From positions 1,318-65,317 of the forward strand of contig JACCWD010000090.1 of assembly GCA_013697825.1 (NCBI GenBank): a stretch of DNA of 64,000 bases. Direction: 5' to 3'. Of this stretch, positions 47,707-62,019 are shown one piece after another. How positions within the stretch are numbered: the stretch's first letter is position 1; every line of letters begins with the position of its first letter. The translations under genes were made by a program, and so were the position numbers. The notes below the pieces were generated by a model, which had not been told where the DNA came from, did no database searches, and was given only the letters and a program-made list of their open reading frames with translations. This DNA comes from Rubrobacter sp. (GTDB taxonomy: Bacteria; Actinomycetota; Rubrobacteria; Rubrobacterales; Rubrobacteraceae).

Positions 47707-48228
47707 GGTTATGTCCCTTACATGGTCGAAGAGGCGCCCCGATTATGACGGGACGCCTCTTTTGTGGTGTTCGTTCGGTCTGTGTGTTTATACATTGTAT
47801 CGGTCGGCGGAGCCGGATCGCGGTCTGCGAGAGCGGCTCGTCGTCGAGGACGGCCTCGACCCACAAAACCCGGTCGCCGCCGTCGAAGTACTCTTCCGGG
47901 AGGTCGAAGGAGGCGACGGCGGTGTACGGCTCGTCGGAGCCTTCGATCCACACTTCGTACTCCGGCGACTCCATCAATATTTCCCCGCCGTCGTCGGATA
48001 TGACGATGCGGGCGTTCCACTGGCGGTCGGTGGCGTGGTCGCACACCCCTCGAACTTCGCGTACGCCACGAAGGAGGTGCCGCCCTCCTTCGCCGGACGG
48101 ATCTCATCGAGGACGCCGAAGAGCGTGTGGCGACCGTCGAACTCCGTGCAGCTTTCCGCGAGGACGAGCGCGGTGCATTCGACCACGCCTTCGCAGAAAA
48201 TCTCGTCGTTCATGAAGTCGTCACCCAT
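47630..48228 (-). pseudogene. Hypothetical ORF translationally coupled to gyrA, frame-split at a G4 run
   Basis: The ATG at 48228 overlaps the gyrA stop (ATGGGTGA) with GGAGGA upstream. Frame A (..FVAYAKFEG) continues as frame B (VCDHATDRQWNARIV..) if one G is added to the run at 48046-48049. Confidence 0.45.
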
Positions 48229-51200
48229 TGAAATCTCCTCCGTTCTCGCTCGGCTCGAAGCCCTCCGGATCGAAGCCCGGCTCGGGCGGCCCGGCGGTGG
48301 TCGGCCCGGTCTCGTCCTCGCCGACGATGTCGTCGAGGGTGAGTTCATCGGTCGCCCCGTCCATCGAACCGACAGCCGCGTCGCGCGAGGAGACGACTTT
48401 GGCGAGCGCGCTCACCACGTCGCCTTCGCGGAGGTTCATAACGCGGACTCCCTGTGCGGTGCGCCCTTGCTGCGAGACGGACTCCGCGTCTATGCGGATC
48501 GTCGTCCCGAAGTTCGAGACGATGACGAGTTCGTGCGTGCCGGATTTGACGACTTGAACGCCGGCGAGCTTGCCGCGCTCCCCGTTCGTCTTCATGGCGA
48601 TGATGCCTTGCCCGCCGCGTCCCTGAATGCGGAACTGCGAGAGCGGGCTCCGCTTCCCGAAACCCTTCTCCGTCAGCATGAACAAGTCGGCGGCCTCGTC
48701 GGAGATGACATCCATCGAAAGCACGTCGTCGCCCTCGCGGAGCGTGATGCCCTTCACCCCGGCGGTCGCCCGGCCCATAGAGCGGGCGTCGTCCTGATCG
48801 AAGCGGATGCTCTTCCCGTCGCGGGTAACCATCACCACCGCGTCCCCGCTCGAGGTGTGGCGAACGTCTATGAGTTCATCCTCCTCGGCGAGGTTTATGG
48901 CGATGATGCCGTCGCTCTTCAATGGCGTGTTGTAATCCTCGAACTTCGTCTTCTTGACGATTCCCTTCCTCGTGGCGAAGGTGAGATGCTCGGCCTCGTC
49001 GAACTCCTTTGTGGCGACCACGGCGGCGATCCGCTCGTTCTGCGCGAGCGGGAGCATGTTCGCCACGTGCCGCCCCTTCGCCGTCCGGCTCATCCGCGGA
49101 AGCTGATGCACTTTCAGACGATAAACCTTTCCACGGTTCGTGAAGAAGAGCATGAAATGGTGGGTCGTCGTGATGAAGAGGTGCTCGATATAGTCGCCCT
49201 CTTTGAGATCCATGCCCGCTACCCCGACGCCGCCGCGGCCTTGCTTGCGGAACGAGTTCACCGGGACGCTCTTCAAATATCCGCCGTTCGAGATGGAGAT
49301 GACCATCTCCTCCTCGGCGATGAGATCCTCTATCTCGAAGTCCACGCCCTCTTCGGCGGTGATGACGGTGCGGCGCTCGTCGGCGTAGGCGGCCTTCACT
49401 TCGGCGAGTTCGTCCTTGATGATCCCGTACACGAGTCCGTCGTCGGCGAGAACGCTTTCGAGGTATTCGATCTTCTCCATGAGATCCCGGTGTTCCTGCT
49501 CGACCTTCCCCCTCTCCATCGCCGTGAGCCTTTGCAAACGAAGGTCGAGTATCGCCTGCGCCTGCCGCTCGGAGAGATCGAAGTTCTTCATGAGGTTCTT
49601 CCGGGCGGTCTCGGGGTTCTTCGACCGACGTATCGTCTCGACGACCTCATCCAAACTATTCAGCGCGATGAGGAGTCCTTCGAGGATGTGCGCCCTCGCC
49701 TGCGCCCGGTCGAGTTCGTACTTCGTCCTCCGCGTAACGACCTCGAACTGGTGGGCGACATAGTGCTTCAACGCCTCCATGTACGAGAGGGTCTTCGGGA
49801 CACCGTCCACGAGGGCGACCATGTTCACGCCGAAACTTTGCTGCATTTGGGTGTGCTTGTACAAATTGTTGAGGACGACCTTCGGGATGGCGTCCTTCTT
49901 CAACTCGATGACGATCCGCATCCCGTTCCGGTCGGACTCGTCGCGGAGATCGGAGATGCCGTCGAGCTTCCGCAGCTTCACAAGCTCGGCTATCTTTTGG
50001 AGGAGATAGCTTTTGTTGACCTGGTACGGGATCTCCGTGACGACGATTTGCGTCCGGTTCCCCCGCATTTGCTCGGTGTGGGCCTTCGCCTGAACGCGGA
50101 TGGAGCCTCGCCCGGTGGCGATCGCGCTCTTTATCCCCGAAAGACCGACGATCGCGCCGCCCGTCGGGAAGTCCGGCCCCTTTATGTGCTTGGCAAGGTC
50201 GGCGTCGTCCATATCCGGGTCGTCAATGAGCGCGGTCGTCGCATCCACGACCTCGGAGAGGTTGTGAGGCGGGATCTTCGTCGCCATACCGACCGCGATG
50301 CCGTCCGATCCGTTCACGAGCAAATTCGGGAACCTCGACGGAAGCACGACCGGCTCCCTCTGACTCTCGTCGAAGTTCGGAGCGAAGTCCACCGTGTCGG
50401 CGTTTATGTCCCGGAGCATCTCCGTCGCCATACGAGTCATACGGGCTTCGGTGTTGTGGCTGACGAATCCGTTTGTGATAAACGAATGGTCTTCGGAATC
50501 CACCCGGATCGAATACACCGGACGAACCCCCGCCTCCTCGACGGACTCGACTTCGGCGTAATAATAGCCGGAGGAAACGATCGGCTCGACGACCGAGCGA
50601 ACTTCCTCGGACTCGATGCGGTCGAGTATCGCTGTTCCACGCTGTTCCCACCGCTCGACGCGATCCACGTTGTTGTGGGTCAGCCAATGCCGAGGCTTTG
50701 AAGAGAGATAGTCGGTACGAATATAGTCGGCAAGATAAGGTATACGGTCTTTACTCAAACCCGCTTTGGTTTTCAATGGCATGACGGCAAGCGTCGCCGC
50801 CAGTTTCTTCTGCTTCGTGCAAAGGAAGCCTATGCGCTTAGAGAAAACCAGCGCGTCCCGGCGGTTGCTTATTACGACTTTGATCTCGCCGTGCCCGTAT
50901 CGAACTTGACGAGACACGATGCCGAACTCAAGGAGCATTTGTTGAACATCTTTGGCAAGCTGTACGCTTCGCGTCGAATACGAAACTTGAATGCTGTTCC
51001 GGGGGAGGACAGAAAATGAGCCATCCCCTTCGAAGAGTGCTTGCATGAACGCACGCTTGCAATCGGCTTTCGCACGCCAAATGAAGGACGGAACTCGCTT
51101 TTCGGCGCTGGCTGCTCCAAGCAGTTCTTTAAGCGGGCTATCGGCAAATTTACTATGCGCTGCGGTCGCCTTGTAAAGCGTCTTACCAGAGGGTATCGGC

Positions 51201-52081
51201 TCCTGAATTACCTTCCGGAGTTTTCCCACAGAATCTTCGTAAGCCGCCTTCACGATATCGAAATACGACTTGACAGAGTTGGCGAAACAAGCCTGTCTTC
51301 TGCCCGTCATCGCCCCCTCTGCTACCAACCCTCCGGCGGCTATCGCCTCCGACAATTCTTTGGTGCTTGACTCGCCGTCGTTCGGATCGCTGCTCGGACG
51401 GGAGAGCGCAACATAATCCCCCGGCTTGATTTCCTCCAAGAGCTTCCATAGAAGCACAGGCACACCCAAAACGTTGGCCAAACAAAGAACCGGATGGTTG
51501 TATGTACCCGTCGTCTCGTACCCCTCGACGGTTTGGAGCTTCAACGTTGGATGGTCACCGCTATGAAAGAGCTTGGAAGCGTGGACACGCTTGCCGCTAC
51601 GATCATAAACTTGCTCGTCTATGTCAACGGTGGTATCCGGCTCGGAATACGCGATTTCGGATATAGGGAGAGTGCCACGCGCCGTCCTGACAAGGGTGTC
51701 CCCAACTTGGCAGTATCTCATTGCGGCAGCCGAGTCCCCGTCCACGGAACCGAAGTTTCCTTGTCCGTCGACGAGCTTGTAGCGCATCGACCACGGCTGC
51801 GCGAGGCGAACCATCGTGTCGTACACCGAGGCGTCGCCGTGCGGGTGGTATTTACCGAGGACTTCACCGACGACGGTGGCGCTCTTCCGGTATGGCCGGT
51901 TCGGCTGAAGGCCGATGTCGTTCATCGCATAGAGAACCCGGCGATGCACCGGTTTCAAACCGTCCCGCACGTCGGGGAGGGCGCGGGAGACGATCACGCT
52001 CATCGCGTACGAGAGGAAGGAGTCTTTTATCTCGTCCTCTATGGAGTGCGGCTGTATGTTCCCTGCGAAAGAATCAAGCAT
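48221..52081 (-). CDS. gyrA: DNA gyrase subunit A (intein-containing precursor)
   Basis: LPDVRDGLKPVHRRVLY, GKYHPHGD and the AAMRY catalytic Tyr, then the intein, then TEARMTR.. and the beta-pinwheel CTD. 1286 aa. Confidence 0.97.
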   Translation of the reverse strand: MLDSFAGNIQPHSIEDEIKDSFLSYAMSVIVSRALPDVRDGLKPVHRRVLYAMNDIGLQPNRPYRKSATVVGEVLGKYHPHGDASVYDTMVRLAQPWSMRYKLVDGQGNFGSVDGDSAAAMRYCQVGDTLVRTARGTLPISEIAYSEPDTTVDIDEQVYDRSGKRVHASKLFHSGDHPTLKLQTVEGYETTGTYNHPVLCLANVLGVPVLLWKLLEEIKPGDYVALSRPSSDPNDGESSTKELSEAIAAGGLVAEGAMTGRRQACFANSVKSYFDIVKAAYEDSVGKLRKVIQEPIPSGKTLYKATAAHSKFADSPLKELLGAASAEKRVPSFIWRAKADCKRAFMQALFEGDGSFSVLPRNSIQVSYSTRSVQLAKDVQQMLLEFGIVSRQVRYGHGEIKVVISNRRDALVFSKRIGFLCTKQKKLAATLAVMPLKTKAGLSKDRIPYLADYIRTDYLSSKPRHWLTHNNVDRVERWEQRGTAILDRIESEEVRSVVEPIVSSGYYYAEVESVEEAGVRPVYSIRVDSEDHSFITNGFVSHNTEARMTRMATEMLRDINADTVDFAPNFDESQREPVVLPSRFPNLLVNGSDGIAVGMATKIPPHNLSEVVDATTALIDDPDMDDADLAKHIKGPDFPTGGAIVGLSGIKSAIATGRGSIRVQAKAHTEQMRGNRTQIVVTEIPYQVNKSYLLQKIAELVKLRKLDGISDLRDESDRNGMRIVIELKKDAIPKVVLNNLYKHTQMQQSFGVNMVALVDGVPKTLSYMEALKHYVAHQFEVVTRRTKYELDRAQARAHILEGLLIALNSLDEVVETIRRSKNPETARKNLMKNFDLSERQAQAILDLRLQRLTAMERGKVEQEHRDLMEKIEYLESVLADDGLVYGIIKDELAEVKAAYADERRTVITAEEGVDFEIEDLIAEEEMVISISNGGYLKSVPVNSFRKQGRGGVGVAGMDLKEGDYIEHLFITTTHHFMLFFTNRGKVYRLKVHQLPRMSRTAKGRHVANMLPLAQNERIAAVVATKEFDEAEHLTFATRKGIVKKTKFEDYNTPLKSDGIIAINLAEEDELIDVRHTSSGDAVVMVTRDGKSIRFDQDDARSMGRATAGVKGITLREGDDVLSMDVISDEAADLFMLTEKGFGKRSPLSQFRIQGRGGQGIIAMKTNGERGKLAGVQVVKSGTHELVIVSNFGTTIRIDAESVSQQGRTAQGVRVMNLREGDVVSALAKVVSSRDAAVGSMDGATDELTLDDIVGEDETGPTTAGPPEPGFDPEGFEPSENGGDFNG
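50453..51712 (-). mobile_element. GyrA intein (420 aa) with LAGLIDADG homing endonuclease
   Basis: It starts with Cys directly after AAMRY (CQVGDTLV) and has a TxxH block (TGTYNHP). LAGLIDADG-like motifs are GGLVAEGAM and ALFEGDGSF. It ends ..GFVSHN before TEAR, and its central DNA is visibly lower in GC. Confidence 0.9.
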
Positions 52082-52157: not shown

Positions 52158-55418
<3,261 letters not shown>

Positions 55419-56916: not shown

Positions 56917-57120
56917 TCACTCCACCTCCACCCTCTCGCCCCCCACCTCGACGACGTCGCCGGACTCGAGCTTCCGTCCACGCCGCGTCTCGACCTCGCC
57001 GTTCACCGTGACTTCGCCGAACTGGACGAGGATTTTCGCCTCGCCGCCCGTCCCGGCGACGCCGGAGGCTTTTAGAGCTTGGCCGAGGGTCGTGCCGGGG
57101 GGGACGGATGGGGCTTCCAA
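56917..57120 (-). CDS. yaaA: S4-domain RNA-binding protein YaaA
   Basis: 67 aa. The pattern TLGQALKASGVAGTGGEAKILVQFGEVTVNGEVETRRGRKLESGDVV and the dnaN-recF position are typical of YaaA. Confidence 0.75.
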   Translation of the reverse strand: MEAPSVPPGTTLGQALKASGVAGTGGEAKILVQFGEVTVNGEVETRRGRKLESGDVVEVGGERVEVE

Positions 57121-57127
57121 AACGCGC

Positions 57128-58282
57128 CTAGCTTTGCGACGGGTCGCGCATCGGCATGATGAGGTACAGGAAGTCCGGCTCGCTGTCGTCGTCGGCGTCC
57201 CCCCCGTCCCCTTCGCCGTTCGGGACGATGATGCACGGCTTCAGCGGCTCGTTGCATTTGAAGACGACCTTCTCAGAATCGAGCGCCGAAACGCCGTCGA
57301 GCAAATAGCCGGGGTTGAAGGAGATGAGGAAATCGTCCTCGCTCGACGATGGGAGCTTCTCGTGGGCCTCGCCGATTTCCTGGCTGCGGACGATCACCTC
57401 GACCGACCCCTCGGAGAACGAGAGGCTGACCGGGACCGGAGGCGTTTGTCTTTGGGCGAAGAGGTTCACCCGGCGGAGGGTGCCGATCAAACTCTCCCGG
57501 TCAACGGATATCTTCCGCTCGAACGAGGTCGGAAGGAGCCTTCGGTACTCGGGGAAGTTCCCGTCGATGAGCCGGGTGCCGAAGAGGACGTCGCCGATGC
57601 GGAACAAAGCCTGGTTCTCGGAGAGATCCACTTCGATCTGCTCGTCGTCGGAGGCGGCGAAGATGCGTCCAACTTCCTGCATCGCCCTCGCCGGGATGAT
57701 CGCCTCCCGATTCCCGTCGAAGGTAGTCGCGAGCTCCGTCTCTTTTATGGAGAGCCGGTACGAGTCGGTCGTGACCATCCGCACCCGATTGTCCTCGAAG
57801 CTGATGAGAATGCCGGTGAGGACGGGCCGCGTCTCGTCCCGAGAGTACGACCGGGAAACTTTCTCCACGGTGTCCACGAGCGCATCGCCCGTCATTTTGA
57901 ACGCCCGATCCTCGCCGAACTCCGGAAGCTGCGGAAAGTCCTCCGCCGCATACGACCGAATACGGTACTCGTTCTCCCCCGCCGCGAGCCGAACCGTCCC
58001 CGTCGAGCCGTCGTACTCCAAAGTGAGTTGCCCGCTCGGGAGCGAGCGTACGATGTCGTTGAAGATGCGGGCCGGGATCACGACCTTCCCGTCCTCCTCG
58101 ACCTCCGCCGGGGATGACGTTCGGACGGAGATCTCCATGTCCGTCGCGGAGAGTTTCACCGCCTCGGTTCCGGCCTCGACGAGGATGCCCCCGAGGAGCT
58201 GGATCGTGGATCGAGTCGAGACTCCCCTCGACACCTGCGCGAGCTTTCTGCTGAAGATGTCAGTGTTGCAAACTACCCTCAT
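57128..58282 (-). CDS. dnaN: DNA polymerase III beta sliding clamp
   Basis: 384 aa directly downstream of oriC/dnaA. Three-domain clamp pattern (LSATDMEISV.., ..MVTTDSYRLS.., ..LIMPMR). Confidence 0.95.
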   Translation of the reverse strand: MRVVCNTDIFSRKLAQVSRGVSTRSTIQLLGGILVEAGTEAVKLSATDMEISVRTSSPAEVEEDGKVVIPARIFNDIVRSLPSGQLTLEYDGSTGTVRLAAGENEYRIRSYAAEDFPQLPEFGEDRAFKMTGDALVDTVEKVSRSYSRDETRPVLTGILISFEDNRVRMVTTDSYRLSIKETELATTFDGNREAIIPARAMQEVGRIFAASDDEQIEVDLSENQALFRIGDVLFGTRLIDGNFPEYRRLLPTSFERKISVDRESLIGTLRRVNLFAQRQTPPVPVSLSFSEGSVEVIVRSQEIGEAHEKLPSSSEDDFLISFNPGYLLDGVSALDSEKVVFKCNEPLKPCIIVPNGEGDGGDADDDSEPDFLYLIMPMRDPSQS

Positions 58283-58298
58283 GCCGCCTCCTTTATCG

Positions 58299-58723
58299 CC
58301 TTATTATTATTAACTAACCATATATGTATTAGAACAATAATAATAATAAGGGCTGTGGATAAGTGGATAACTCAAACGATACCCTTTATTTAAGCCGAAA
58401 ACTAGCCGTCGCGCCTGTGGACAAAAATGTGGATAAGTAGCAAAACCCTGTGGATAGATTGTGGATAACTACCCCACTTATCCACAGGCGCGAGTTATCC
58501 ACAATTTTGTCCACAACTTTATCCACAGATTTTACCCCTCTTATCCACAACTTTATCCACAGGCAAATTAGCCATGTATGCTCTTTCTTAACATTTACGC
58601 CCGGAGTTATCCACAGAAACGGAGAGTTATCCACAGAAACTGTGGATAAACGGAAACTTCTGTGGATAAGGTATTTCGGTTATCCACAGGCAAAGTCTAA
58701 ACCTGTGGACAGGGTGTGGATAA
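58299..58723. other. oriC: AT-rich unwinding stretch plus DnaA-box cluster
   Basis: 58299-58350 is almost pure A/T (TTATTATTATTAACTAACCATATATGTATTAGAACAATAATAATAATAA). 58354-58723 holds about 19 DnaA boxes, roughly 14 of them a perfect TTATCCACA/TGTGGATAA in both orientations. Confidence 0.9.
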
Positions 58724-58997
58724 CTTTCGATTTGTATGTCTCGGATTTGTTACAAAGTAGTTCCCCTTAGGGGGAGGGGATTCAAGAGCGTCGGGGCCGC
58801 ATATGACTTGCTGGCGACGTTGTTTTCGAGGCTTGGATCCGCGATGGTTTACGCTAGATTCGGTCGAAGAATTTCGGGCGTCGCGAAGCGTGTCGCGGAT
58901 GCCATTCCACGGCCCGATCCGCAACACAGTTCGCCATTCGCGGCGCCTCGAAACGGCTTTGGTTTTCGGTGGTCGGGGGAGGCGGGGTTTTGTGGTT

Positions 58998-60350
58998 TTA
59001 GCGTTTGCTTTTCACGTGGTGGGTTATTTCGTGGATCTGGTTGAAGGTGTCTCGGTCGCTGTTTATGAGTTTCGAGATTTTGCTTGTGGCGTGCATGACT
59101 GTGGAGTGGTCGCGGCCTCCGAAGGCCTTGCCGATTTTCGGGAGGGACTCGTCGGTGAGCTCGCGCGAGAGGTACATGGCGACCTGGCGCGGGTAGGCGA
59201 ATGCCCTCGATCGGCTCGTGCCTATGAGGTCTTGTTTCGCGATGCCGAAGTAGCGGCACGCTTCGTGCTGTATTAGCTCGATCGGGATCTCGCGGTACGC
59301 CGAGTCGGGCAATATGTCCCGGAGAACCTCCTCGGCGAGCGCGACGCTGACTTGGCGACCGTACAAAGAGGCATAAGCCAAAATTCGGATGAGCGCGCCT
59401 TCGAGTTCGCGGATGTTCGTCTCGACCTTCGAGGCTATGAAGGTGAGGACTTCGTCGTCCACCTCGAGCTTGTCCATCATCGCCTTTTTGCGGAGGATGG
59501 CGATCCTCGTCTCGAGGTCGGGCGGAGTGATGTCGGTGATGAGGCCCCACTCGAAGCGGCTCACGAGGCGGTTCTCGAGGGTTTGTATGTACTTCGGGTG
59601 CCTGTCCGAGGCGATGACGACTTGCTTCTCGTCGTCGTAGAGCGAGTTGAACGTGTGGAAGAACGCTTCCTGGGTCTCGATCTTGTTCTCCAAAAACTGT
59701 ATGTCGTCTATGAGGAGGACGTCGTTCTCACGGTACCGCTTCTGGAATTGGAGCGGGGCGTTGTCGCGCATCGAGTTTATGAAGTCGTTCGTGAACTGCT
59801 CGCACGTAACGTACCGGACGCGGCTGCTCGGGTCTTGCTCCTCGACGTACTGCCCCACCGCCCGCAAAAGATGCGTCTTCCCAAGCCCGACCCCGCCATA
59901 TATGAAGAGCGGATTATACTGCGTGCCGGGGCTCTCGGAGACCGCGAGCGCCGCCGCGTGAGCGAAGCGGTTCCCAGCCCCGGTGACGAACGAGTCGAAG
60001 GTGTATTTCACCCGCACTGGACGTGAAGGCTTCGCGTTGCGGACGGACTGCGCCCCCTCGGCGTCGGAGCCGTTGCTTTGCGTCCGGCTCGGGCCGCCCT
60101 CCCCGACGGTCACGATGAGGGAGGTTTCCTCCTTCCCCATCACGTCGTCGAGAGCCTCTTCGAGGAGCGGGCGGAAGCGGCTCTCGATGTATTCCTTCGC
60201 GAAGCTGTTCGGGACGGAGATCTCGAGTGAGTCCTCATAGAGGTTGAGCGGGCGCGTGCCTTCGAACCATACTTTCAGGGACGGGGCGTTGATATGCTCC
60301 GAAACGCTGTCGAGGACTTCATTCCACACATCTTCGACTCGCCTTTGCAT
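58998..60350 (-). CDS. dnaA: Chromosomal replication initiator DnaA
   Basis: [14 protein letters not shown]-terminus, AAA+ ([26 protein letters not shown]), and the C-terminal DNA-binding domain (..[11 protein letters not shown]). 450 aa. Confidence 0.97.
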
Positions 60351-60353
60351 GGG

Positions 60354-61175
60354 CTACTTGACCCAGGTGCTTATTATCGCCTCCACGTAATCCCGTCCGA
60401 GAGGCGAGATCACCCGCTTCCCGGACTCGTCCCCGGCGACTAGCCCATGCTCCTCGAGAACCGAGAGGTCGCGGTACGCCGTGCTCACGCTGATCTCCAG
60501 ACTGCCCGCTATCGTCGAAGGCCCGACCTCCCCGCACTCGAGAACCGTCACGAGAACGTTTTGCTGCCGCTCGGAAATGTTTATCCTCGGCACCTCGTCG
60601 GGATATTTCCGCTTGGGAGACGGCTTTTGGAATTCTCGCGCCTCCTCCGGTGCTCCGGTCGGCTCCGGCTTATCATCGGTTCCCGATTCCTCGGCGATGG
60701 AGACCGTGACGACGGATCCGCCCCCGAGGTTGTCCTCGATGGACAGCCTCCCCCTCGCCTTTACCATCTCGGAGCGTGCGATGCCGAGGCCCGCCCCGAT
60801 GCCGCGTATCTGGCTCAAAGCCTCGGCGTTCGCGCCGGAGAACCCGAATTCCATCGCCTGGCTTTTGCTCGCTATCCCCGGCCCCTTGTCCGACACGCGG
60901 ACGGTCTTTCCGTCGTCGAGGATGGAGATGACCACGCCTTTGTAGTCGGCGTGTATGAGGTTCTCGATGATTTCGCGCACGGCTCTTTCGGGGATTCCGC
61001 TCTCCATCTCGGCCGCTTTCCGGTCTATGAGCCTCGTGAGCTTGGCGGTCGCCGCTCCGGGGCTTCCGGCGGAGACTTCGGTGATCTCCGGTTCCCCGCC
61101 CTCGGGGTATACGACGACTCGGACGTTTATCTCCGCCCGGTCAGCATCCCGTCGTGTCCGCTGTTCGTGGATCAT
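60354..61175 (-). CDS. GHKL (HATPase_c-like) ATP-binding domain fused to a C-terminal winged-HTH
   Basis: N-box EIIENLIHA, G1 DKGPGI, G2 GIGAGLGIA; the C-terminus (QQNVLVTVLECGEVGPSTIAGSLEISVSTAYRDLSVLEEHGLV) is wHTH-like. Its stop lies 3 nt before the dnaA ATG. Confidence 0.7.
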   Translation of the reverse strand: MIHEQRTRRDADRAEINVRVVVYPEGGEPEITEVSAGSPGAATAKLTRLIDRKAAEMESGIPERAVREIIENLIHADYKGVVISILDDGKTVRVSDKGPGIASKSQAMEFGFSGANAEALSQIRGIGAGLGIARSEMVKARGRLSIEDNLGGGSVVTVSIAEESGTDDKPEPTGAPEEAREFQKPSPKRKYPDEVPRINISERQQNVLVTVLECGEVGPSTIAGSLEISVSTAYRDLSVLEEHGLVAGDESGKRVISPLGRDYVEAIISTWVK

Positions 61176-61257
61176 CCCCAGACAAATCTAACCCACACCC
61201 GCCGAAGACGCTAGATCCAAAGCCAGAAAAATACTGTTTTGCAGGACATAGAGATTT

Positions 61258-61290
61258 TTATCCACAGTTTTATCCACAGCTTGTGGATAA
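61258..61290. promoter_or_regulatory. Three perfect DnaA boxes in the divergent rpmH / GHKL-dnaA promoter region
   Basis: TTATCCACA at 61258 and 61270, and TGTGGATAA at 61282. Confidence 0.8.
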
Positions 61291-61530
61291 AACGCCCGGT
61301 ATCCCCAAAACTATGCTTTGTTTTCCCTTTGTTACGCGCCGCATCGCTCGTAATCAGCCTCCATTGAAACCATATAAACACCGCTTTTGCAGAACTTTTC
61401 TTAGAAAGGGGCATGAAGCGCGATACACGCTCGGATTTGTATCCCGTGTGGTTTTTACTGGATGGGCGGCGGTGGCTTGGATATACTCTTTGGCTGTTTG
61501 TGGATCTGAGATTCTTCCAGAGGAGAGAAA

Positions 61531-61665
61531 ATGAAGAGGACTTACCAGCCGAACCGTCGCAAGCGAGCGAAGACGCACGGGTTTCGCAAGCGCATGAGTA
61601 CGGTCGGCGGGCGGAGGGTTGTGGCGGCTCGCCGCAGGCGCGGTCGCAAGCGGCTCGCTGTCTGA
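61531..61665 (+). CDS. rpmH: 50S ribosomal protein L34
   Basis: Hand-translated as [51 protein letters not shown] lies upstream. Below the ORF-track length cutoff. Confidence 0.95.
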
Positions 61666-61668
61666 TCC

Positions 61669-62019
61669 TTGCCGCGCCGCGCCGACATGAGGATCACCGA
61701 TTCCCCCGAGTTCGACCGAGTTTACCGCCGGGGCGCAGCTTATAGGGGGAAGTTGTTTTCCGTCCACGCTTTCCCGAACGAGGCTGGAAACCCCCGCCTC
61801 GGGCTGTCCGTATCGAAGAAGGTTGGCAATGCGGTGGTGAGGAACAAGGTGAGGCGGCGTTTGAAGGAGATTTTCCACGCTCGGATGGAGGAGAAGGAGC
61901 GGGTGCTTCAGAGTTTGGATTTCGTGGTGTCCGCCCGGCCTGCTTCGTCGGCTGCGTCGTTTCAGGATTTGGAGCGGGAGTTTTCGGTGGCGTTGAAGAA
62001 GCTCGAGGGTCGTGTTTGA
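61669..62019 (+). CDS. rnpA: Ribonuclease P protein component
   Basis: Position after rpmH, plus FDRVYRRG.. and the RNR motif KVGNAVVRNKVRRRLKE. The start may be the ATG at 61687. Confidence 0.9.
   Translation: MPRRADMRITDSPEFDRVYRRGAAYRGKLFSVHAFPNEAGNPRLGLSVSKKVGNAVVRNKVRRRLKEIFHARMEEKERVLQSLDFVVSARPASSAASFQDLEREFSVALKKLEGRV

Follow-up and report, generated by a model that had tools for sequence, protein, structure and literature searches.

Gene content and control elements of the rpmH–dnaA interval

The window, by which we mean the entire 64,000-nucleotide stretch of Rubrobacter sp. DNA that was analyzed, contains a 273-aa open reading frame between rpmH and dnaA, to which we give the working name X (Table 1). 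An earlier sequence-only reading of this region had reported this ORF, which the ORF list and the sequence bear out, and had placed it between a DnaA-box region and dnaA as part of the dnaA operon, an assignment that conserved synteny supports (see below). X is followed by dnaA and then dnaN, and the rpmH, rnpA, yidC, and jag genes lie on the plus strand, divergent from X–dnaA and starting at 61531. In model Actinomycetes (Mycobacterium, Streptomyces), rpmH stands directly opposite dnaA, without X. An Rfam scan of positions 58200–61700 returned chance matches only.

Table 1. Features of the X–dnaA locus in window coordinates.
Feature	Position	Strand	Description and basis
rpmH	61531..61665	+	Divergent from X; bounds the 355-bp control region; ORF list, tblastn across loci
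Two conserved CTGCAAA motifs	61238–61244, 61386–61392	-	Flank the DnaA boxes; alignment and k-mer conservation
Three perfect DnaA boxes	61258–61266, 61270–61278, 61282–61290	.	83–115 nt upstream of the X start; box scan
Candidate X–dnaA promoter	61185..61213	-	Alignment of 24 upstream regions; k-mer conservation
Gene X	60354..61175	-	273-aa HK-type ATPase + wHTH; ORF list, sequence, Pfam
X, family-specific N-terminal element, aa 16–56	61008..61130	-	Two beta strands and a helix ahead of the N-box helix; AF2 pLDDT ~82–86
X, HATPase_c (Bergerat-fold) domain, aa 63–161	60693..60989	-	Pfam, invariant columns, AF2, Foldseek, PDB profile
X, disordered acidic/Pro-rich linker, aa 162–197	60585..60692	-	pLDDT below 50; alignment gaps
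X, winged helix-turn-helix, aa 198–272	60360..60584	-	Pfam, AF2 pLDDT ~90 (three-helix + wing), invariant columns
Coupling junction TAG-CCC-ATG	60348..60356	-	X stop (60354–60356), 3-nt gap, dnaA start at 60350, no SD
dnaA	58998..60350	-	450 aa, cistron 3′ of X; DnaA_N/Bac_DnaA/Bac_DnaA_C matched in orthologous loci
dnaA–dnaN spacer, probable oriC	58283..58997	.	18 DnaA boxes (58354–58723) and an AT-rich tract next to dnaN
dnaN	57128..58282		Comes after dnaA

DnaA boxes with at most one mismatch number 22 in the window compared to 2.95 expected, a count reached by 0 of 100 shuffles. The dnaA–dnaN spacer, which holds 10–20 DnaA boxes in relatives, is the probable oriC; this spacer is the usual site of oriC in Actinobacteria. 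The three perfect boxes are upstream of X and not directly before dnaA, as had been claimed. On the X strand, they read TTATCCACA-n3-TGTGGATAA-n3-TGTGGATAA with 12-bp spacing, they are present with fixed spacing in essentially all Rubrobacterales loci, and they look like a promoter or autoregulation set. In distant lineages, a DnaA-box cluster (5–10 boxes in 700–1100 bp) occurs upstream of X, and the dnaA–dnaN spacer is short and poor in DnaA boxes. Among the loci examined, X always borders the DnaA-box cluster, and a box almost never falls inside X.

The candidate promoter comprises a -10-like TAGATT at 61185–61190, 9 nt before the X ATG, and a conserved TAGCGT at 61208–61213, 17 nt upstream of TAGATT. 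Among the upstream regions compared, a conserved -10-like TAnAtT hexamer is found 9–12 nt before the X start codon, a distance short enough to suggest a very short or absent leader. The 355-bp rpmH–X spacer also contains a conserved GCTATAGC palindrome (TCTAGCG in the window), which with CTGCAAA makes up the only non-DnaA-box motifs conserved upstream; both are restricted to Rubrobacterales. We considered CTGCAAA as a class-wide operator for X and rejected it, because the motif is absent from the oriC spacer and was not found in distant lineages.

Association of X with dnaA across lineages

A search of 5.8 billion proteins identified 1638 relatives of X. The best 120 of these 1638 are all full length with both domains present, and the named ones among them come from Rubrobacteraceae MAGs and are labeled only 'ATP-binding protein'. 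An exhaustive search of 50%-identity representatives yielded 742 clusters at E ≤ 0.001 and 411 at E < 1e-10, and a search seeded with a Coriobacteriaceae homologue yielded 3982 relatives, cultured Olsenella species among them. A profile protein search with a 33-sequence alignment (A1) recovered abundant soil Rubrobacterales only and added no diversity. GTDB species genomes, searched with a smaller alignment (A2), contained 79 X loci: ~60 from Rubrobacterales and 18 relatives at 34–45% identity, which carry the labels Coriobacteriia, Thermoleophilia, Miltoncostaeaceae, 'Actinomycetes', 'Eubacteriales', and, for one MAG, Armatimonadota.

In every GTDB locus with DNA downstream, tblastn found dnaA as the next gene 3′ of X, in the same orientation. 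Three long contigs, with X at 63–76% identity, have rnpA–rpmH diverging from X–dnaA–dnaN–S4–recF–gyrB; Olsenella loci have the same gene order, with X directly 5′ of dnaA, as do four of the most distant representatives (29–38% identity) for the X–dnaA pair; and X is the last gene before position 1 of the complete Rubrobacter marinus chromosome. Altogether, dnaA was immediately 3′ of X and on the same strand in ~90 of ~90 X-selected loci with downstream DNA, over a range of X identity from 85% to 29%, and the lineages with X–dnaA include Rubrobacterales, Coriobacteriia (cultured Olsenella), Thermoleophilia, and unnamed lineages. In a Thermoleophilia MAG (L075), thiamine-related genes are upstream and the rpmH cluster is gone, and X is still attached to dnaA. 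In the L167–L170 locus set, the presence of mnmE/mnmG beside jag may be a sign of non-actinobacterial origin.

For the reverse test, we searched metagenomes with DnaA from the window. Of the Rubrobacterales dnaA loci recovered, 65 extend at least 850 nt upstream, and X is adjacent in all 65; the nine shorter loci all show a truncated X. No copy of X away from dnaA was found among the loci examined. Conservation of the gene upstream of dnaA, which the sequence-only reading had named as a check, was thus confirmed for every homologue examined and in the reverse direction, and the contrary outcome, that relatives lack X or carry it mostly elsewhere, is decisively contradicted.

These results bear on whether X arrived recently at the dnaA promoter as an element of mobile, defence, or toxin–antitoxin type. 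X does interrupt the canonical rpmH–dnaA arrangement, and PADLOC gave weak matches, but these matches cover the wHTH only and are of the Csa3/CasR HTH type. Moreover, X matches the flanking genes in GC content, neither repeats nor an integrase or tRNA were found around it at the locus, PADLOC and composition revealed no defence or mobile-element signature there, and X is universal and vertically conserved in at least 170 loci. An insertion of this kind is highly improbable and is effectively refuted by synteny, composition, and the restriction of the PADLOC matches to the wHTH.

Domain architecture of X and comparison with known ATPases

Pfam matched HATPase_c (PF02518) to aa 63–161 of X above its gathering score (E 3.7e-11) and a TrmB-type wHTH (PF01978) to aa 198–258 (29.0 bits, compared to a cutoff of 25.6); the wHTH also matched HTH_IclR and HTH_20. 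No NCBIfam model reached its cutoff for X. HisKA/DHp had no Pfam match in X or in the 120 + 120 relatives listed, and no DHp-like helical hairpin was present in an AlphaFold2 model of X built from a 68-sequence alignment (mean pLDDT 70.8). The Pfam matches and alignments therefore agree with the initial description of X as carrying HATPase_c motifs and a C-terminal wHTH but no His-phosphotransfer region.

The nucleotide-binding motifs of X are an N box (E68/N72/H75), G1 (D96-x-G98-x-G100), and G2 (G125-x-G127-x-G129), and the ATPase domain also contains a conserved E147-D148-N149..G153. In 33 X sequences, down to 29% identity, N72, H75, G89, D96, G98, G100, G111, G125, G127, G129, N149, and G153 are invariant, and E68 is near-invariant. 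As judged from the alignment, the invariant residues are the complete Mg-ATP contact set of an HK-type domain. In the AlphaFold2 model, the N-terminal element (aa 16–56) and the wHTH (aa 202–272) have high confidence, the Bergerat-fold ATPase spans aa 63–160, and the disordered linker spans aa 163–196; the ATP lid (aa 103–127) has low confidence, which predicts flexibility. Two residues of the N-terminal element, Y23 and P29, do not vary and are found specifically in the X family (alignments A1 and A3). The length of the linker varies across the family, in which proteins range from 250 to 430 aa. In the wHTH, the recognition helix S229-x-S-T-A-Y-R235-D-L is near-invariant in the family and is altered to T-W-S-R-x-L in the Olsenella branch. 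These residues and the predicted fold make it almost certain that X is functional in ATP binding and contains a DNA-binding module.

By sequence, the ATPase of X belongs to the HATPase_c superfamily, within which HK catalytic domains resemble it most. The top-ranking Foldseek matches in the PDB were the catalytic domains of the sensor HKs HK853, CpxA, ZraS, and WalK and CheA P4 (E 4e-5), and a search of PDB sequences with the X family profile found KinB (6e-8) followed by BceS, HK853, WalK, and CheA. X has the Bergerat fold and the N, G1, F-like, and G2 motifs in common with HK853, CpxA, KinB, WalK, and CheA P4. Compared to sensor HKs, however, X has no DHp/HisKA, HPt, sensor, or transmembrane region, and it has an additional N-terminal beta-beta-alpha element and the C-terminal wHTH. 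No invariant His other than H75 of the N box is present in the X alignment, and no response regulator gene was found near X in the loci examined. X is not a classical histidine kinase, because DHp, acceptor His, and response regulator are all missing.

SpoIIAB and RsbW resemble X in being stand-alone HK-like ATPase modules without DHp, and they act by binding, and sometimes phosphorylating, a partner protein. The JGI automatic annotation labels X-type relatives as SpoIIAB/RsbW. Unlike these proteins, X carries a DNA-binding domain, and the sequence match is weak: SpoIIAB (1l0o) aligned to the family profile over aa 69–166 with an E value of 2e-3, HATPase_c_2 (PF13581) had no match in X at E ≤ 1, and no sigma factor or STAS antagonist gene was beside X in any locus examined.

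As the main alternative to the function proposed below, X might nevertheless act, while tethered to DNA, as a protein kinase or partner switch like SpoIIAB/RsbW or CheA P4. Its HK-type domain would bind DnaA or another initiation protein and phosphorylate it in trans, and the wHTH would serve only to localize X at the origin region. The motifs are of HK type throughout (G1 DxGPGI, F-like, G2 GxGxGLGI, C-terminal GxGT), X is without a DHp of its own, as are stand-alone kinase modules, the predicted ATP lid bears a conserved Ser/Thr-rich G-F-S-T-A motif, and the SpoIIAB alignment points in the same direction. Phospho-regulation of DnaA by AfsK has reportedly been observed in Streptomyces. We consider such a kinase unlikely given the missing HATPase_c_2 match, the lack of any acceptor domain or partner gene (STAS, HPt, response regulator) near X in the loci examined, and the lack of a conserved His outside the N box.

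Other GHKL-like proteins resemble X in part. GHL ATPases (MutL, GyrB, Hsp90, MORC) share the Bergerat fold and a catalytic Glu placed four residues ahead of the Mg-binding Asn (E68-x3-N72 in X), and the N-terminal region of MutL matched the X profile at 4e-5, over motifs I–II only. In X, however, the linker and wHTH follow the ATPase in place of a transducer of ribosomal S5 fold, for which X had no Pfam match. DIP2311 (3lmm; AlbA_2 + HATPase_c_4 + wHTH) also has a GHKL-like domain followed by a wHTH, and Foldseek aligned X to 3lmm over 285 columns spanning both domains, with an RMSD of ~16–17 Å and a TM score of 0.4. X differs from it in HATPase subfamily and in having no N-terminal AlbA_2; PF04326 (AlbA_2) and PF13749 (HATPase_c_4) had no match in X, and the resemblance is one of domain order only. 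To our knowledge, DIP2311 has no link to dnaA. Because the defining features of each group were not found in X, we place it outside two-component kinases, SpoIIAB/RsbW, transducer-bearing GHL ATPases, and DIP2311-like proteins.

With TrmB/ArsR/IclR-type transcription factors, X shares a winged-HTH DNA-binding domain. Its likeness to known regulators of DnaA or oriC (Hda, DiaA/HobA, SeqA, YabA, SirA, Soj/ParA, MtrA, AdpA, and CtrA) lies in the role that we propose for it, and some of them (Hda, Soj) also use a nucleotide switch. Pfam, NCBIfam, PDB-sequence, and Foldseek searches found no homology of X to these regulators, and we know of none that is a GHKL protein or a conserved upstream cistron translationally coupled to dnaA. 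Full-text literature searches found no description of X or of a conserved gene intervening between rpmH and dnaA in these taxa, and X has no curated family or name, 'ATP-binding protein' being what databases give. What appears to be new is the family itself, together with its unusually strong and likewise undescribed tie to the initiator; its domains are known, and its function is one that we infer.

The X–dnaA junction and the proposed function of X

The sequence-only reading had proposed that X and dnaA are translationally coupled, noting that the X stop codon is 3 nt before the dnaA ATG and that no obvious Shine–Dalgarno sequence precedes dnaA. Both observations are correct: the nearest GGAGG is 29 nt upstream of dnaA, and the 20 nt before its start contain no Shine–Dalgarno sequence, in contrast to dnaN (AAGGAGG) and rpmH (GAGGAG). 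In 105 of 106 distinct Rubrobacterales junctions, dnaA starts 0–6 nt after the X stop, and in 94 the gap is 2–3 nt; an SD-like 4-mer at the right distance was present in 2, and the dnaA start codon was GTG in 81, ATG in 19, and TTG in 6. This pattern strongly supports termination–reinitiation coupling, of which it has the signature. Outside Rubrobacterales, the proposal holds less generally. In Coriobacteriia and Thermoleophilia, the gap is often 10–170 nt and dnaA has its own SD (a recognizable GGAGG); at the distant loci L167, L168, and L170, the gaps are 0, -4, and 3 nt. As these comparisons indicate, it is adjacency that all lineages share, tight coupling being a refinement of particular lineages. 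The further statement that X and DnaA are expressed stoichiometrically is unsupported, because coupling implies dependence rather than a 1:1 ratio.

Two other arrangements at the junction were considered. Normalized synonymous-site entropy along X was flat at ~0.7 in 61 sequences, the last 60 codons included, with no conserved embedded element or dip in synonymous variation at the 3′ end. A sigma-70 promoter and terminator scan, which detects actinobacterial promoters poorly, found none on the coding strand within X. Thus neither the entropy profile nor the scan points to a dnaA promoter conserved inside X in Rubrobacterales. An X–DnaA fusion produced by UAG read-through was rejected: X and dnaA share a frame in the window, but the gap is 2 nt in 31 of 106 relatives, and such a fusion is not conserved because the frame relation varies between 2-nt and 3-nt gaps.

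Coupling and synteny also bear on another reading, in which X would be a conventional transcription factor responding to ATP or a ligand, with a regulon unrelated to replication, and would stay beside dnaA only because the shared promoter or the position near the origin makes for convenient expression. The wHTH is of a generic TrmB/ArsR/IclR type, the first gene of an operon is a transcription factor in many cases, and the function of X is deduced from adjacency only. Set against these points, the adjacency is exceptionless over class-level divergence (X at 29–40% and DnaA at 42–53% identity) and survives upstream rearrangement, no copy was found away from dnaA, and coupling would tie the output of DnaA to X. 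A regulon of that kind therefore seems quite improbable to us.

As judged from conserved gene order, X is the first cistron of a conserved X–dnaA operon, and it is a strong candidate for an unrecognized factor in starting chromosome replication. To judge from gene association and domain content, its most likely function is that of an ATP-gated, DNA-bound regulator of dnaA expression or of DnaA/oriC activity, in line with the origin or DnaA regulator that the sequence-only reading had suggested. Transcription would begin in the rpmH–X spacer, beside the three DnaA boxes, which would give DnaA autoregulation. Ribosomes finishing X would then re-initiate on dnaA, such that DnaA synthesis would depend on, and scale with, translation of X. 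X itself would bind DNA of the origin or the dnaA control region via its wHTH, and its nucleotide state (ATP binding or turnover) would switch its modulation of dnaA transcription, of DnaA assembly at oriC, or of both. X would thereby be a lineage-specific initiation regulator that ties the initiator to cellular ATP or energy status.

We lean toward this combination of a spacer-promoter operon under DnaA autoregulation, DnaA synthesis that needs translation of X, and a nucleotide-switched X at the origin, and regard it as somewhat probable. A regulatory role is favored by the exceptionless synteny with dnaA (~90 X-selected loci and 65/65 in the reverse direction), by the invariance of the ATP-binding residues and recognition helix together with a fold confirmed in the predicted model, and by the conservation of promoter-like elements and DnaA boxes in the upstream spacer. 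Several observations argue against it, however. The upstream non-box motifs are confined to Rubrobacterales, although conservation of the recognition helix extends across classes. Catalytic domains of HK type as a rule act as phosphotransferases, not switches. Tight coupling is not a consistent feature of Coriobacteriia or Thermoleophilia, and adjacency can reflect co-regulation without direct functional interaction. More tentatively, X may be an ancient and so far unrecognized initiation factor: an origin-tethered HK-like ATPase that gates DnaA directly, whether through nucleotide-dependent binding or through phosphorylation, and serves as its obligatory partner, with DnaA synthesis hard-wired to translation of X. 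The scope of such a gating factor would be Rubrobacteria, Thermoleophilia, and Coriobacteriia, and possibly lineages outside Actinomycetota.

The regulators of initiation known so far are specific to lineages, and nearly all stem from a small number of model organisms. In the present case, one uncharacterized protein family is tied to dnaA without exception across class-level divergence, an association that is about the strongest that comparative genomics can offer, and the 'rpmH–dnaA' paradigm fails for several deep actinobacterial classes. Carriers of X include Coriobacteriia of the human and animal gut (Olsenella) and the radiation- and desiccation-tolerant Rubrobacter group. On the coupling evidence, the X–dnaA locus would be a natural case in which synthesis of the initiator is translationally slaved to an upstream ORF.

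Probable replication origin and its position relative to X

The spacer between dnaA and dnaN contains a cluster of DnaA boxes (see table) and, immediately ahead of the dnaN Shine–Dalgarno sequence, an AT-rich tract, which together probably constitute oriC and its unwinding element. This spacer is 715 nt long in the window, whereas it is about 500–600 nt in most relatives. Spacers of about 1100–1220 nt at three relatives' loci (L001, L061, and L063) suggest that some origins hold insertions.

Features of the dnaA region (window positions)
Feature	Position	Strand	Description
gyrA	48221-52081	-	1286 aa; intein with LAGLIDADG homing endonuclease, aa 139-543
gyrB	52158-55403	-	1081 aa; intein (Intein_splicing), aa 451-877
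S4_2-domain ORF	56917-57120	-	67 aa; YaaA/RlbA-like; between dnaN and recF
dnaA-dnaN spacer	58283-58997		18 DnaA boxes at 58354-58723, both orientations
AT-rich tract	about 58290-58350		
Palindrome	61208-61214		GCTATAGC in most relatives
CTGCAAA, two copies	61238-61244, 61386-61392		same orientation; on either side of upstream DnaA boxes

Coriobacteriia, Thermoleophilia, and further lineages (L066–L083 and L167–L170) carry a DnaA-box cluster upstream of X, the HATPase_c–winged-HTH gene directly 5′ of dnaA, with 5–10 TTWTCCACA-like boxes in 700–1100 bp, and their dnaA–dnaN spacer is short and contains few boxes. Thus, the predicted oriC of these lineages lies on the other side of the X–dnaA pair compared to Rubrobacterales.

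The X–dnaA junction and upstream motifs

X and dnaA share a reading frame in the window (TAG CCC ATG, 60348–60356), and UAG read-through would therefore yield an X–DnaA fusion. We rejected this possibility, as the frame is not conserved and the gap is 2 nt in 31 of 106 relatives. The final codons of X (ACC TGG GTC AAG, within 60357–60371), which encode its C-terminal T-W-V-K, show strong conservation in Rubrobacterales. A GGGT within these last codons, embedded in the X coding sequence, might serve as a weak ribosome-contact element for dnaA, given its spacing of about 9 nt from the dnaA start.

The CTGCAAA motifs and the palindrome are kept throughout Rubrobacterales but occur neither in oriC nor in other classes. 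They are candidate promoter elements or binding sites of some factor.

Neighboring genes and reach of the X family

Both gyrase genes contain inteins, and two relatives, L001 and L003, likewise have gyrB intein calls. The dnaN–S4 ORF–recF order is typical of Firmicutes, unlike that of model Actinomycetes.

Among loci with distant X homologues, mnmE adjoins jag in L167 (1–1207), and mnmE and mnmG adjoin jag in L170 (1–1649). GTDB labels assign one locus to Armatimonadota (L076) and two to Eubacteriales (L066 and L074). Because mnmE and mnmG, to our knowledge, are generally not present in Actinomycetota, their position beside jag in L167 and L170 indicates that the X family may extend to other phyla.
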